A DNA stretch of 64,000 nucleotides from Clostridia bacterium (GTDB lineage Bacteria > Bacillota > Clostridia > TANB77 > UBA1234). The stretch is from assembly GCA_017469545.1 (NCBI GenBank), contig JAFUGE010000008.1, forward strand, positions 127,268 to 191,267. Reading direction: 5' to 3'. The position numbers and the translations under genes are program-made. Under the pieces are notes generated by a model. That model searched no databases and had not been told where the DNA came from. It saw only the letters and a list, made by a program, of their open reading frames with translations. Shown one piece after another: positions 57,840-63,640 of the stretch (the stretch's first letter is position 1; every line of letters starts with the position of its first letter).

Positions 57840-58336
57840 TGTTCTTTATTGATGAAATGAAAAAAATAATAAGAGAAAAGGATATTCAAAATCTTGGAAT
57901 TTTTGTTGATATGGATGGGGTTATTGCCGACTATAGATTTGGAGAAGGAAAGAATATATTGAACAATGTGAGTGGCGTTTATAGGGACAAAAGACCAATT
58001 GGTGCCACTATTGAAGTCTTAAAAGAGTTAAATAGAGAAATAAAATGTAGGATGCATATTTTGAGTTCGTGTTATCATTCTGAGCAAATTAAGGAGAAGA
58101 ATGATTGGCTCAATGAATATGCGTCCTTTTTTGAACTTGAAAATAGAATAATAGTTATGTCCAATACTTTTGAGAACAGAAAAAAATTGAAAATTGACAG
58201 AATGATAGAAATGATGCAAAAGTTTAATTATGATTATGTTGTGTTAATTGACGACACACATGATATATTATTTTTAGCGATTGAAACATTACATGAAAAG
58301 GTTATTCCATTTCATGTGATAACGTTGCTGGATTAA
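57840..58336 (+). CDS. 5'(3')-deoxyribonucleotidase-like HAD phosphatase (NT5C family)
   Basis: GIFVDMDGVIADY is the HAD DxDx(T/V) nucleophile motif in NT5C context; size 165 aa; ATG at 57840 is 7 nt after GAGGTG. Confidence 0.6.
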
Positions 58337-58345
58337 GGAGGAATA

Positions 58346-59755
58346 ATGAGTTTCGATGTTATTTTAGATTGCTATACTGATGAACCGTCTGGTTTAGGAG
58401 TCCCACCATATTTAGGTGTTCATTCTAGGTATATAGCAGGATGCTTAACTGAGATGGGAAGAGAGTACTATTATTTAACAATTGATGATTTGAGATATAC
58501 CAATGGGGAAAGAAATTTTGAAAATACATATAATAAGAGAATACTAAATACTACAAAAAATACTGAAAATTCAGTTTACTTATTAGAAAATGCAACAAAC
58601 ATATATGTTGTAATGGGGTGTTTCGTAAAATATAATTATGTTTCTGCTGAACCTCCAAGTTTTGAAGAAGTAAGGAATTTATTGAAAAAATTCTCTTTGA
58701 ATCAAAACACAGTGTTGTTTTATGCATTAGGTGGATCAGAGTTAACAAGGGAAAAAATAGTGCAAATTGTTCCGCAAGATGTTTTTCATGAAATTGTTTT
58801 TGGAAATACATATAATTATTTTTTAAATAAGGAAATAAAAAATAATTTCGAATCAAATTATAACCAATTAAAAAATATAGCTATATCTTCATCGACAATA
58901 ATGAAACAACTTAAAAGACCAATGATGATAGAAATTGAGACTGCAACTGGCTGCAATAGAAATCCAGGTTGTACGTTTTGTATTGAGGGAAAAAGAGGAT
59001 TACCATTACAATTTAGAAGAAAAGAAGATATTGTTCTAGAGATGAGTTCATTATACAATGAAGGTGCTAAATTTTTTAGGCTTGGAAGACAACCTAATTT
59101 TTATGCTTATGATCATTCTAATCCAGAAAGTATAGAGGAGCTATTTAAGAACATTTGGAAAATATGTCCTGAAATAAAAACACTCCATATTGATAATGTG
59201 GGACCACAAGATGTAAATACAGAAAATGGTCAAAAGATAACAGAAATAATATCTAGGTATTGTACTGATGGAAATATTACACCTTTTGGAGTTGAATCAT
59301 TTGATGAAGCAATAAGAGAAAAATGCAATTTAAATGGTACAATTGAAGACATCCATGAAGCTGTATCTATCATAAACAAGTATGGTAAAGAACGTGGAAA
59401 AACAGGAATGCCTAAGGTATTGCCAGGTATTAATATTATATATGGTTTGGATGGACAAAATGAGAATACTTTAAAAATAAATTTAGAAAATTTTGATAAA
59501 ATAATGAAAAATGAAAATATGGTTAGAAGAGTTTTTGTAAGAAAGCTAACTTCACCTTTTGGAGAGCAATTTGATAATTACAGTATAGAAAACATAGAAG
59601 AATTTAATGAATGGTCAAAACAAGTGGAGGAAAAATTTTCATTCCCAATGTTAAAAAGAGTTTTTCCTATAGGAATTGAAATATCAGAGCTTAGAATGGA
59701 AATGTTTGAAAATCGGAAATTCTATTTTAAGGCAGATGGCTACATGCCCAGTTAG
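58346..59755 (+). CDS. radical SAM-like protein with non-canonical C-x5-C-x2-C cluster motif and about 200-aa N-terminal extension
   Basis: IETATGCNRNPGCTFCIEGKRG: three Cys spaced x5/x2 at about residue 204-213; a glycine-rich GGSE-like segment (YALGGSEL) lies upstream; RBS AAGGAGGAATA; ATG 10 nt after the previous stop. Confidence 0.5.
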   Translation: MSFDVILDCYTDEPSGLGVPPYLGVHSRYIAGCLTEMGREYYYLTIDDLRYTNGERNFENTYNKRILNTTKNTENSVYLLENATNIYVVMGCFVKYNYVSAEPPSFEEVRNLLKKFSLNQNTVLFYALGGSELTREKIVQIVPQDVFHEIVFGNTYNYFLNKEIKNNFESNYNQLKNIAISSSTIMKQLKRPMMIEIETATGCNRNPGCTFCIEGKRGLPLQFRRKEDIVLEMSSLYNEGAKFFRLGRQPNFYAYDHSNPESIEELFKNIWKICPEIKTLHIDNVGPQDVNTENGQKITEIISRYCTDGNITPFGVESFDEAIREKCNLNGTIEDIHEAVSIINKYGKERGKTGMPKVLPGINIIYGLDGQNENTLKINLENFDKIMKNENMVRRVFVRKLTSPFGEQFDNYSIENIEEFNEWSKQVEEKFSFPMLKRVFPIGIEISELRMEMFENRKFYFKADGYMPS

Positions 59756-59851
59756 AGTTGTAATTGAAAATCAGGAACTTATACTTGACAAATTTTATAA
59801 AGTAAGAATTATAGGTTATAAGGGAAATAGAACATTAATAGGAGAAATTAT

Positions 59852-61810: not shown

Positions 61811-62552
61811 CATTTCAGAAGATAATATTATTATCAATGCAAGCAATAAAAGCAATAAGTGTATAGGCGGTAGTGCTGTGTATTCTTCGTTCGCTAGTAG
61901 AATTTCAAATGAATTTTTAAAAATAGGAATTATAGGAAAATGCAATGGTAAGTATAAAAATATTATTGAACAGAATAAAATAGACTTTTTGGGAAAAATA
62001 GTAGTTGATAACACTATATTTTATATAGACGAGATAAAGAATACATGTGAAGGGGAAAATTATAATAATGTTTGTTATGAAAATAGCAAAAAGGTTAAAA
62101 CAAGACATCTGCATATATCTTTCAGGAAAGGAATAAGTGTTGAACAGATTATAGAAAATGAATTAATTGAGTACGATTCACTATCAGTTGATGTTATGAT
62201 ATATAGCGTTAATTTTTTTATTCCTGTATTGAAAAAATATTCCAACAAAATTGATATCTTATTTTGTAATATGGATGAGTATATAATGATTAAAGAATAC
62301 ATAGATAGCAAAACAATAGTAGTTATAACTAATAATTCAAAACCTGTTACAGCATTAGCTTTTAATAAAATATATATGGCAGAAGTAGATTATATCTATA
62401 ATGTTCTTTCGACTACAGGTGCAGGAGATTCTTTTATTGGTGGCTTTTTAGGAAGATATTTGCAAGAAAAGAATTTGGAAGAATCCATAAAAAGCGGAAT
62501 AATGATATCGCAAAAATCGATATTGAATATTCGGACCTTTAATGAGCAATGA
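61785..62552 (+). CDS. PfkB-family carbohydrate/nucleoside kinase (ribokinase-like)
   Basis: C-terminal TTGAGDSFIGGFLG is the PfkB anion-hole/catalytic GAGD motif; ATG at 61785 is 8 nt after GGAGAG and overlaps the previous gene by 26 nt. Confidence 0.6.
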   Translation: MWDLIFVGNISEDNIIINASNKSNKCIGGSAVYSSFASRISNEFLKIGIIGKCNGKYKNIIEQNKIDFLGKIVVDNTIFYIDEIKNTCEGENYNNVCYENSKKVKTRHLHISFRKGISVEQIIENELIEYDSLSVDVMIYSVNFFIPVLKKYSNKIDILFCNMDEYIMIKEYIDSKTIVVITNNSKPVTALAFNKIYMAEVDYIYNVLSTTGAGDSFIGGFLGRYLQEKNLEESIKSGIMISQKSILNIRTFNEQ

Positions 62553-63381
62553 AGGAGTAAAAACGATTTCTTCATTAAAAGTATATGAAATGCCAAAAAA
62601 GGTTATTGTAATAGGAAATTCATGTGCAGGTAAAACAACTTTTGTGAATATGTATAGAAGTATCTTTGATATTTATGATGAAATAGATGATATTAAACCA
62701 CTAACAGAAGTGTTTATGCTAGATGACTTGATAAGAAAAAATGATATGAATTTAGAAAATATAGATGTTAAATATTGTAAAGATATACTTAAAGAATATG
62801 TATTAGAAAAAAATAATATTAATTTTTATACTAAACTATCTGAAAAAGGACAGGGACACGTTATATTAAGACCCGTTTTATGGGAAAAGATTGTTGAATA
62901 TTCTTTGAATGCATGTAATTCAGATAAATTTATTATTCAGCTTGCAAGAGGAAAAGATGAATCCTATGATGATATGGAAAAAACTAATGCGTATGAAAAA
63001 GCTTTTCAAATAATGGATGACAAGAAGAAATTAGGCAAAGATACAATTATAGTGAATTTAAAAGCTGATTTAAAAAGGAGAATTGATAGAAACGAACAAA
63101 GGAAACGAAATGGAGGTCATTATGTTGATTTTAATACTATGAATACTGTATATGCTCATGATATTTTTCAATATGATACGGATAAAGGAAGAGATTTTTA
63201 TGATATGAATGGTAGAAAACTTTTGGTTTACAATATTGAAAATAATAATATTTTGGACGAAAATGATTTGAAAGTTTTTATGAGTAATAATATAATCAAT
63301 ATGATTAAATATTATAACAAATTTAAGGAGGATGTATCAGATGGATATGAAAAAATTACAAAAAGAAGTTTATCAAAATAA
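62542..63381 (+). CDS. P-loop NTPase, putative (deoxy)nucleoside/nucleotide kinase (AAA_18/AAA_33-like)
   Basis: VIVIGNSCAGKTTFV Walker A near the N-terminus; start uncertain (ATG 62542 overlapping the PfkB stop, or in-frame ATG 62590). Confidence 0.5.
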   Translation: MSNEGVKTISSLKVYEMPKKVIVIGNSCAGKTTFVNMYRSIFDIYDEIDDIKPLTEVFMLDDLIRKNDMNLENIDVKYCKDILKEYVLEKNNINFYTKLSEKGQGHVILRPVLWEKIVEYSLNACNSDKFIIQLARGKDESYDDMEKTNAYEKAFQIMDDKKKLGKDTIIVNLKADLKRRIDRNEQRKRNGGHYVDFNTMNTVYAHDIFQYDTDKGRDFYDMNGRKLLVYNIENNNILDENDLKVFMSNNIINMIKYYNKFKEDVSDGYEKITKRSLSK

Positions 63382-63640
63382 ATTAAATAAAGGTTTTAAC
63401 GTTACAGATGTTAATAAAGAATTCTGCTTTTTGTATGGTGAAGTAGCAGAAGCATATGATGCATATAGAAAAGGAAAAGATGACTTAGGTGAAGAATTGG
63501 CAGATGTTGCAATATATTTATTGGGCCTTTCAGAAATTTTAGGTAAAGATTTGGAAGATGAAATATTAGCTAAATTTGAGAAAAATAAAAGTAGAGTATA
63601 TAAGAACATTGATGGCAGAAATGTTAGAATCGGTGATTAG
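63341..63640 (+). CDS. MazG-like nucleoside triphosphate pyrophosphohydrolase (all-alpha NTP-PPase)
   Basis: EFCFLYGEVAEAYDAY ... EELADVAIYLLGLSEILG is the EExxE...EExAD metal-binding signature of MazG/dCTPase-type NTP-PPases; ATG 63341 is 9 nt after AAGGAGG; overlaps the previous gene. Confidence 0.65.
   Translation: MDMKKLQKEVYQNKLNKGFNVTDVNKEFCFLYGEVAEAYDAYRKGKDDLGEELADVAIYLLGLSEILGKDLEDEILAKFEKNKSRVYKNIDGRNVRIGD

Follow-up and report, generated by a model that had tools for sequence, protein, structure and literature searches.

The subject of this study is a gene cassette centred on a COG1031-type radical S-adenosylmethionine (SAM) enzyme. One copy of it closes the window, that is, the whole 64,000-nt stretch of Clostridia bacterium contig JAFUGE010000008.1 (assembly GCA_017469545.1, positions 127,268 to 191,267) that was analysed. 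From position 57839 to the end of the window, nine genes form a single tightly packed operon, numbered g1 to g8 in Table 1 and followed by a GNAT acetyltransferase gene; in the layout of the open reading frames (ORFs) they all lie on the plus strand, with overlaps or gaps of at most 10 nt between them. The chemical core of the cassette is the radical-SAM enzyme (g2) together with a translationally coupled two-cysteine isomerase (g3), and the other members are a glycosylase-like protein (g4), three kinases (g5 to g7), a phosphatase (g1) and a pyrophosphohydrolase (g8). We lean towards the view that this uncharacterised operon produces a non-canonical (deoxy)nucleotide and polices it, by means of a kinase ladder of its own and of a phosphatase and a pyrophosphatase acting in reverse. 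Judging from the enzyme families, the nucleotide would most likely be a pyrimidine 2'-deoxynucleotide.

An earlier note on the window had recognised five of these enzymes, namely the PfkB kinase, the Tmk-like kinase, the second P-loop kinase, the MazG-type pyrophosphohydrolase and the NT5C-type phosphatase, within one operon at 57840-63640, and all five are indeed present there on the plus strand. About 2.9 kb in the middle of this interval (58346-61275) had been left undescribed, which is where g2, g3 and g4 lie, and the continuation of the operon past 63640 into the GNAT gene had been missed. The three genes overlooked in the middle are among the most conserved parts of the unit.

Conservation and mobility of the cassette

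ORFs were called in the retrieved loci and queried with the window proteins and hidden Markov models of the families; the counts below refer to 46 non-redundant bacterial loci that carry the radical-SAM gene with enough flanking DNA. The isomerase, the glycosylase-like protein and the Tmk-like kinase (g5) each accompany the radical-SAM gene in 45/46 loci, the PfkB kinase (g6) in 44/46 and the second P-loop kinase (g7) in 37/46. MazG is found in 34/46, Ham1 in 7/46 and NT5C in 29/46, and a GNAT gene adjoins the cassette in 7/46, also in Streptomyces. Since the same gene set recurs in 44 to 45 of 46 independent loci, the grouping is far beyond chance. Every family taken singly is common in nucleotide metabolism, and one could imagine that ordinary housekeeping salvage genes are merely adjacent here, with no joint function. 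We find this hardly credible, as the co-occurrence across phyla already contradicts a reading by adjacency only, as do the fusions and overlapping frames. Moreover, the g4 family is tiny, the block is an island of low G+C content with an integrase remnant, and pyrH-like and cytidylate-kinase-like genes already exist elsewhere in the window (Table 1). Both of these genes had been named earlier as an argument against ordinary salvage; they are real, and the position of the island behind the integrase remnant adds to that argument.

The set persists despite shuffled gene order and fusions in Bacilli/RF39, Alphaproteobacteria, Gastranaerophilales, Patescibacteria, Chloroflexi and Streptomyces. In metagenome-assembled genomes (MAGs) of the gut Bacilli/RF39 type, the PfkB kinase is fused to g7 in a protein of 520-535 amino acids; the separate genes of the window correspond to the unfused arrangement of other phyla, and this split need not be a defect. 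In gut Alphaproteobacteria and Gastranaerophilales, a small ASCH-like gene, Ham1, PfkB and g7 precede the radical-SAM gene, and the Tmk-like kinase is fused to a HAD phosphatase. A fusion of g4 to g5 occurs in Patescibacteria, Chloroflexi, Kordiimonas and many environmental contigs. In other cassettes, NT5C gives way to a HAD domain on the Tmk-like kinase or is accompanied by a YfbR-like HD protein, and Ham1/ITPase substitutes for MazG in 7 cassettes. MazG or Ham1 on the one hand, and NT5C, the fused HAD domain or the YfbR-like protein on the other, are interchangeable accessories. The lineage-specific accessories comprise Ham1, the YfbR-like HD protein, the HAD phosphatase, NUDIX, Tdk, a cytidine-deaminase fusion, a nucleoside 2-deoxyribosyltransferase (NDT)-family protein, which is an extra tandem member in soil-type variants, and a thymidylate-synthase (TS)-family protein. 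The last of these was found in 1/46 cassettes, a Chloroflexi one (L054 14574-15320), where its gene replaces g7 and overlaps the end of PfkB; the catalytic 'PCH' reads 'PST', and the Cys nucleophile is missing. NrdD adjoins the cassette in one locus, two genes away in a Patescibacteria genome. A minimal alphaproteobacterial version (L052 8929-13450), located between ruvA-like and cysS-like housekeeping genes, holds only the ASCH-like gene, Ham1, the radical-SAM enzyme, the Tmk-HAD fusion and the isomerase, from which it follows that PfkB, g7 and g4 are dispensable in some hosts.

The cultured Streptomyces sp. NBC_01456 has a complete cassette with 71% G+C near the end of a linear plasmid (Table 1), with an NDT-family gene, a SAM-dependent methyltransferase and a GNAT alongside. 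The order in its PGAP annotation is radical SAM protein, two hypothetical proteins, carbohydrate kinase, nucleoside 2-deoxyribosyltransferase, two further hypothetical proteins and SAM-dependent methyltransferase. Related radical-SAM genes lie on four further Streptomyces plasmids.

The cassette is a rare, horizontally mobile unit, as indicated by its low G+C content and integrase remnant in the window, by serine recombinases within 9 kb in 14/46 loci, and by an island in a split penicillin-binding-protein gene. This island of about 14 kb, seen in two loci (L035 3753-19763 and L025 1472-18415), has a large serine recombinase at one end and, beside the cassette, carries GNAT-transglutaminase-ASCH genes, a cytidine-deaminase fusion and NUDIX. 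Tyrosine recombinases are near the cassette in other loci, a tRNA gene abuts it in L005, and XRE or WYL regulators lie upstream of some copies. Its position varies between genomes, and there is no fixed core-genome site of the kind that would have spoken against the earlier proposal of a special-purpose module.

Enzymes of the cassette

The radical-SAM enzyme is about 500 amino acids long; it has a CX5CX2C motif for its cluster, and its C-terminus is TRAM-like. It matches Pfam Radical_SAM at 5e-10 and, weakly, the MiaB/RimO and B12-radical-SAM models. The best matches of the family profile in the PDB are MiaB (7mjz) and the B12-dependent glutamine C-methyltransferase QCMT (9ccb); the likeness to the cobalamin class (QCMT 9ccb, TIGR04013) is confined to the radical-SAM core. 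There are 1686 homologous proteins and 459 GTDB species, and one homolog carries the JGI name 'radical SAM superfamily enzyme with C-terminal helix-hairpin-helix motif'. Three known identities were considered and found no support. The three N-terminal cysteines of the methylthiotransferases are absent, C9 being the only invariant one in the first 180 residues of 26 homologs, and the score against TIGR00089 (36.7 bits) falls far below the cut-off of 251, both against a MiaB/RimO enzyme. Against a viperin stand a PADLOC scan of the radical-SAM protein, which returned 0 families at E<=0.1, and the best relatives being MiaB and QCMT. As for queuine lyase, no curated family matched and a supporting link was not found.

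In intact copies, the stop codon of the radical-SAM gene and the start codon of g3 overlap by ATGA, which argues for a joint action of the two proteins. The isomerase matches NCBIfam EutA (1.4e-11) and Pfam Amdase (2e-5), and its family profile matches the maleate isomerases 4fq7 and 2xec and the Pyrococcus Amdase homolog 2dgd at about 1e-17 to 1e-15. C80, C177-T178, N12, E16 and P116-Y117 are invariant in the family, and both catalytic cysteines and the carboxylate-binding residues are retained. These conserved residues point to thiol or thiolate chemistry, and they imply that the substrate would be a carboxylate-bearing molecule or a Michael acceptor.

The archaeal relatives of g2 behave differently from the bacterial ones. 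Homologs in DPANN and haloarchaea (29-41% identity) are solitary amid housekeeping genes, with no cassette around them, and so they tell nothing about what the cassette does. On a Natronorubrum bangense plasmid (L177 7974-10227), a solitary 575-aa homolog is followed by a TRAM-domain protein, an arrangement in keeping with the TRAM-like tail of the enzymes from bacteria; this hints at an ancestral function of the family related to RNA. Because the archaeal homologs stand alone, the cassette is a bacterial invention built on one branch of an older radical-SAM family.

Relative to intact homologs, the window copy of g2 has one extra C at 59714 (GAA AAT C GGA AAT TCT; site 59711-59717). The 0 frame stops at 59755, and the conserved last 45 or so amino acids are encoded in the +1 frame (59715-59855), which terminates in the usual ATGA overlap with the start of g3. 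A sister lineage from a different sample (76% identity; L094 1905-2130) has the identical extra C, and on its 3' side most differences between the two lineages affect third codon positions of the +1 frame. Rather than decay, this pattern suggests a conserved and possibly programmed +1 frameshift at CGG, a rare codon, or a separate 39-aa peptide.

The AlphaFold2 (AF2) model of g4, with a predicted local distance difference test (pLDDT) score of 92, has a two-domain, all-helical, helix-hairpin-helix (HhH) fold. Foldseek ranks MagIII, EndoIII, MutY and Ogg on top in the PDB, with template-modelling (TM) scores of 0.5-0.6 and probability 1.00. Pfam HhH-GPD matches the ortholog of locus L051 at 7e-6. 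The Lys of 'GASYK' and the Asp of 'PVDSG' 20 residues on do not vary among 10 orthologs that represent five phyla, and a weak hhalign comparison with an approximate Nth sequence aligns this Lys with K120 of E. coli Nth; a C-terminal Cys motif is conserved only in part. Canonical HhH-GPD glycosylases and g4 do not retrieve each other by sequence. According to its model, g4 is best placed in the HhH-GPD superfamily as a divergent member. It shares with Nth, Ogg, MagIII and MutY the fold, the HhH Lys and the downstream Asp, and it differs from them in being usually fused or adjacent to a deoxynucleoside monophosphate (dNMP)-type kinase. At 50% identity the family forms 108 clusters in a set of 1.84 billion representatives. 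About half of its diverse members are about 440 aa long, the length of the fusions with the Tmk-like kinase in L049, L054 and L056. Fusion to a kinase of the dNMP type argues for a nucleotide substrate.

Solo copies of g4 also exist at loci with no cassette (L126-L128, L132; L143; L109; L091 10001-10771). Some lie next to NUDIX and Fic-domain genes and a protein with motifs of the uracil-DNA glycosylase (UDG) family, others next to Ham1 or to GNAT, PfkB and NUDIX genes, which suggests an independent sanitising or repair role for g4. A 'Phage_30_3' protein beside one solo homolog was considered as a relative of g7 and proved unrelated.

Of the three kinases, g5 matches Pfam dNK, Thymidylate_kin and AAA_18, all at about 1e-6, and the phage family phrog_761 'thymidylate kinase' at 7e-19, and it has the motifs 'EGIDGSGKTT' and 'DRCFISE'. 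A Tmk ortholog in the strict sense was rejected, since neither TIGR00041 (2e-9, 37.3 bits against a cut-off of 83.25) nor PF02223 (26.7 bits against 27) is reached; the protein is Tmk/dNK-like instead. The PfkB assignment of g6 is clear (4.8e-11, 43 bits against a cut-off of 25.8), with G30-G31 and G214-A-G-D217 invariant, and the nearest PDB entries of the family profile are the nucleoside kinases 3kd6 and M. jannaschii MjNK (2c49), together with adenosine kinases. Sequence matches of g7 are limited to the P-loop. Its AF2 model (pLDDT 81) weakly resembles the PNKP kinase domain, CoaE, UMP/CMP kinase and dCK; as these are generic P-loop or nucleoside monophosphate (NMP)-kinase matches with TM of at most 0.44, an identity from structure was not accepted. 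With the conserved motifs EFSRG and RN..R..GGH.VS, g7 is a P-loop kinase of an undescribed family. The kinases had been credited earlier with three different folds; there are two, one ribokinase-like (PfkB) and one shared by the two P-loop enzymes.

The phosphatase g1 exceeds the Pfam NT5C cut-off (29.1 bits against 24.8) and has the HAD motif 'FVDMDGVIADY' (DMDGV), as expected of a predicted 5'(3')-deoxyribonucleotidase-like enzyme. The pyrophosphohydrolase g8 falls just short of Pfam MazG (25.9 bits against 27) and MazG-like (21.5 against 22) and matches phrog_3301 'pyrophosphatase' at 3.5e-13; its orthologs at other loci clear the Pfam thresholds without a weak mark. The partial GNAT product matches Pfam Acetyltransf_1 at 8.7e-6, and the full gene encodes 173 aa on the parent contig.

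A candidate pathway and its alternatives

In the pathway that we favour, the PfkB nucleoside-type kinase would convert a nucleoside into its monophosphate, which the radical-SAM/isomerase pair would then remodel by radical chemistry. The HhH-GPD enzyme may make, break or swap the glycosidic bond at the level of the (d)NMP, with an NDT-family partner in the soil variants, and the Tmk-like kinase and g7 would lift the product to the di- and triphosphate. MazG (or Ham1) and NT5C (or the HAD or YfbR-like enzyme) would reverse the phosphorylation ladder, and this reversal may clear the competing canonical nucleotide, limit self-poisoning or free the nucleoside. The GNAT could tailor or detoxify an amino group. 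A pathway of free nucleotides is favoured because the accessories are enzymes of free, mostly deoxy-pyrimidine nucleotides, because PfkB is nucleoside-kinase-like and because g4 is fused to g5. We infer the substrates, the order of the steps and the purpose from the families, folds and associations described above. The earlier proposal of a non-canonical nucleotide with pool-sanitising enzymes is compatible with these data and is strengthened by the radical-SAM enzyme, the isomerase, the glycosylase and the NDT of the soil variants. The 'complete' nucleoside-to-triphosphate route announced with it goes further than the evidence, having been derived from enzyme families alone.

As for the purpose, we tentatively favour either a conflict molecule, such as an antiviral or antibacterial nucleotide analogue in the manner of viperin or OxsB, or a precursor of modified DNA. 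A bolder version, possible but tentative, is that of a new radical-SAM pathway to a novel deoxynucleotide that would serve as a chain-terminating or poisonous weapon against phages or competitors, or as a modified base in DNA. The HhH-GPD fold would have been repurposed there to the glycosidic bond of free nucleotides, and integrative islands would have spread the whole across hosts ranging from human-gut Bacilli to Streptomyces with their plasmids.

Several known systems resemble the cassette. Prokaryotic viperins (pVips) with their kinases share with it a radical-SAM enzyme next to NMP-type kinases and mobility, and with the proposed pathway free nucleotides as substrates and a non-canonical nucleotide product in conflict. 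However, the radical-SAM enzyme of the cassette has CX5CX2C, a MiaB/B12-radical-SAM-like core and about 500 aa, and it matches no pVip model of PADLOC; the pVips also lack the isomerase, the glycosylase, the PfkB kinase, the phosphatase and the pyrophosphatase. In the oxetanocin A pathway, the B12-dependent radical-SAM enzyme OxsB reportedly remodels 2'-deoxynucleotide phosphates, and OxsA is said to be an HD phosphohydrolase that trims the phosphates. This is a small plasmid-borne cluster, and its radical-SAM core falls into one structural class with that of the cassette (OxsB is listed together with QCMT 9ccb), but the cassette enzyme has no detectable specific homology to OxsB, the window operon has no HD enzyme, and the kinases, the isomerase and the glycosylase are extra. 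The clusters for bacimethrin (BcmA-D) and for mildiomycin and blasticidin (MilA/MilB, BlsM) reportedly combine an NDT-family N-glycosidase and a ribokinase-fold kinase with tailoring methyl- or acetyltransferases and sometimes a TS-family enzyme. The Streptomyces cassette has NDT, methyltransferase and GNAT in common with them; these clusters lack the HhH-GPD enzyme and the two P-loop kinases, and to our knowledge the radical-SAM/two-cysteine isomerase core does not occur in them. Altogether, the cassette appears likest the viperin-plus-kinase and OxsB/OxsA systems in its logic and phage hypermodification in its enzyme classes, and it is a member of none. A literature search on COG1031, on the gene combination and on radical-SAM anti-phage systems returned no paper on the cassette and unrelated work only, such as the Ophion anti-phage system (radical SAM, PHP and PRTase).

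The earlier note had seen in the operon a hallmark of phage or defence modules. Neither label was borne out. By tblastn, the radical-SAM enzyme and g4 had no match in the 50,697 phage records of INPHARED, and a phage origin of the cassette was rejected on this ground; the Tmk-like kinase alone has distant phage 'thymidylate kinase' relatives. PADLOC-DB v2 recognised no system among the eight operon proteins, six of which had no hit, and returned weak single-protein kinase matches only (VakA, PDC-M51B, PtuA, HEC-01B). The match of g5 to VakA (1.8e-8), probably a viperin-associated kinase model although we could not confirm the name in the literature, is generic, since the housekeeping cytidylate-kinase-like gene matches VakA more strongly and also matches the 'pVip-kinase' model. 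A known defence system was rejected after the same search was extended to 146 flanking proteins, among which no system was found and defence neighbours were scattered.

The comparison with phage thymidine hypermodification leads to a first alternative, which we judge rather improbable: a post-replicative modification or repair of bases in DNA, with its precursor coming from the nucleotide enzymes. The phage pathway combines a P-loop 5-hmdU DNA kinase (5-HMUDK), the glycosylase-like aGPT-Pplase, a radical-SAM isomerase, a decarboxylase and an acetyltransferase, and phage modules for hmU/hmC-DNA nucleotides add a dNMP kinase, MazG/dUTPase and a dTMP nucleotidase. Both systems thus have P-loop kinases, a protein of glycosylase fold, a radical-SAM enzyme, an acetyltransferase, MazG and a dNMP phosphatase. 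The DNA-glycosylase fold of g4 fits such a role, and its pairing or fusion with a kinase mirrors that of 5-HMUDK and aGPT-Pplase. Against 5-HMUDK of phage M6 (gp54), hhalign gave g5 a probability of 80% (E 1e-5) and g7 one of 56%, values compatible with a general kinship of P-loop kinases. The GNAT is present, a Y-family polymerase is nearby in two contexts, two loci of Alphaproteobacteria have a type III res subunit downstream, and one cassette has the TS-family gene. However, g4 is not an aGPT-Pplase: Pfam gave no hit, hhalign against the ORFs tested from the M6 hypermodification region gave a probability of at most 2%, and the probability for Pplase1 in BFVD was 0.15, against 1.00 for real glycosylases. 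The radical-SAM enzyme is unrelated to M6 gp53, and the window operon and typical cassettes lack the dUMP hydroxymethylase (a ThyA homolog), the sole TS-like protein being the one with no catalytic Cys. Finally, the cassette is cellular, its radical-SAM enzyme and g4 occur in no phage, and no restriction partner is conserved.

Several observations weigh against the synthesis of a free non-canonical nucleotide as we propose it. In its fold, g4 is a true DNA glycosylase, and it has a Lys/Asp pair like that of Ogg and Nth, which points to DNA and not to free nucleotides, and so do the UDG-family and NUDIX neighbours of its solo copies. The radical-SAM enzyme, MiaB-like and with a TRAM-like tail, could act on RNA, and its archaeal relatives are solitary housekeeping genes. 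The window's own copy of its gene is frameshifted. Some copies of the cassette in Alphaproteobacteria and in the candidate phyla radiation (CPR) sit among housekeeping genes, and few of the 146 proteins flanking cassettes are known defence genes. Kinases and phosphatases in one operon could follow a catabolic or sanitising logic rather than a synthetic one, and all substrate specificities are predictions.

This catabolic logic is that of the main rival, which we regard as unlikely but serious. The cassette would take up scavenged modified (deoxy)nucleosides and dismantle them: a kinase would trap the nucleoside, the glycosylase and NDT would free the odd base, the radical-SAM enzyme and the isomerase would convert or destroy this base, and MazG/Ham1 and NT5C would exclude the odd nucleotide from the dNTP pool and from DNA. 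Many carriers are small-genome scavengers (RF39/'Tenericutes' MAGs, Patescibacteria, Gastranaerophilales and gut Alphaproteobacteria), and the neighbours include those typical of salvage (Tdk, a cytidine-deaminase fusion with an ASCH-type domain, NUDIX and NrdD). House-cleaning is the classic role of MazG and Ham1, and the solo g4 copies keep company with NUDIX, Ham1 and UDG-family genes. Queuosine salvage offers precedents in the queuine lyase QueL, reportedly a radical-SAM enzyme, and in the nucleotide glycosylase Qng1, said to have a glycosylase-like fold. However, catabolism has no need of three kinases directed towards a triphosphate, and the fusion of glycosylase and kinase suggests that a product is passed forward to the kinase. 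The cassette is mobile cargo, and its association with methyltransferase and GNAT genes on linear plasmids of Streptomyces looks biosynthetic. Nor did the radical-SAM enzyme match a curated family, which would include QueL if NCBIfam has a model of it.

A further alternative is that the cassette replaces a core supply of deoxynucleotides, by radical-SAM-based ribonucleotide reduction or by folate-independent thymidylate synthesis. The accessories do lean towards deoxy and thymidylate chemistry (NT5C, YfbR-like, Tmk-like, Tdk and TS-family), carriers are enriched in reduced genomes, and the two-cysteine partner could be a reductant or provide a resolving nucleophile. We nevertheless consider this very improbable. 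The Patescibacteria carrier already has NrdD close to its cassette, and the unit is mobile and is also found in Streptomyces and in the Clostridia genome of the window, which have ordinary metabolism. A stoichiometric use of SAM would be very costly, and the methylation of uracil at C5 proceeds without radical chemistry.

If the production of a non-canonical nucleotide is confirmed, the cassette would join viperin and OxsB as a third way in which radical-SAM enzymes produce antiviral or antibiotic nucleotides; analogues of this type have served as antiviral drug leads. It would also give a first biochemical context to the large COG1031 radical-SAM family, to the g7 kinase family and to the g4 offshoot of the glycosylases. 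The cassette is common in uncultured Bacilli of the human and animal gut, where it may shape phage-host or inter-bacterial dynamics. Since one cultured Streptomyces has a copy on a linear plasmid, the question is open to direct experiment.

The window copy and its surroundings

The cassette block of the window has a G+C content of 27-28%, against 33-41% in the remaining window. Between secA and g1 come a terminator-like hairpin, then the integrase remnant and then a promoter-like site (Table 1). The translation of the remnant includes '...YDLRGTFAT...LGHTRIETTENYY', and its match to Pfam Phage_integrase (5.6e-8) covers only positions 127-170 of the 172 of the model. In a consensus scan, the promoter-like site immediately 5' of g1 scores 10/12, with a TG ahead of the second hexamer; it is only suggestive, and sites of this type are no commoner in the region than in shuffled sequence. 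No riboswitch or other RNA leader was recognised in the window leader or in 7 homologous loci. On the parent 265-kb contig, the GNAT gene is followed by HD_4 (RelA/SpoT-type HD, in the opposite orientation), another MazG, a 184-aa unknown gene and a Y-family polymerase; a polymerase of this family is also near the cassette in locus L043.

Table 1. Features of the operon and its surroundings, and one related plasmid locus. Positions are those of the window unless a plasmid or locus is named.
Feature	Position	Strand	Basis
pyrH-like gene (AA_kinase family)	38894-39601		
cytidylate-kinase-like gene	53689-54252		
secA, upstream of the cassette	54288-57011		
terminator-like hairpin after secA	57100-57134		
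tyrosine recombinase/integrase, C-terminal remnant, 75 aa	57531-57758	+	Pfam Phage_integrase
promoter-like TTGAAA, 17-nt spacer, TG-extended TACAAT (suggestive)	57791-57819	+	consensus scan
g1, NT5C-like HAD phosphatase (predicted)	57839-58336	+	Pfam NT5C, DMDGV motif
g2, COG1031-type radical-SAM enzyme	58346-59855 (0 frame to 59755, +1 frame beyond)	+	Pfam Radical_SAM
g3, two-Cys isomerase, maleate-isomerase/Amdase/EutA-like, Asp/Glu-racemase superfamily	59852-60499	+	NCBIfam EutA, Pfam Amdase
g4, putative divergent HhH-GPD superfamily glycosylase	60502-61275	+	AF2 model and Foldseek; HhH-GPD sequence match weak
g5, Tmk/dNK-like P-loop (d)NMP kinase	61295-61810	+	Pfam, TIGR00041, phrog_761
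g6, PfkB (ribokinase-fold) kinase	61785-62552	+	Pfam PfkB
g7, second P-loop kinase, no curated family	62542-63381	+	P-loop match, AF2 model
g8, small MazG-type NTP pyrophosphohydrolase	63341-63640	+	phrog_3301, sub-cut-off Pfam MazG
GNAT acetyltransferase, last operon gene	63642-64000, runs past the window end	+	Pfam Acetyltransf_1
HD_4, second MazG, 184-aa gene, Y-family DNA polymerase	L001 16183-19651, same contig, directly beyond the window end		
Streptomyces sp. NBC_01456 cassette	plasmid NZ_CP109456.1 12293-18742 (L175 8986-15435)		

Two minor features of the window may also reflect past insertions. In the stretch from the secA terminator to the integrase remnant, 57100-57320 has a number of long hairpins that are perfect or nearly so (about 57166-57211 and 57255-57310 among them); they could be a leftover attachment site or a small repeat element. 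A second stretch of low G+C content (28-31%) with a reversed GC skew extends over 16000-20000. It contains two minus-strand ORFs (17783-19138 and 19119-19829) in a window whose genes otherwise lie on the plus strand, and it may be another acquired segment.

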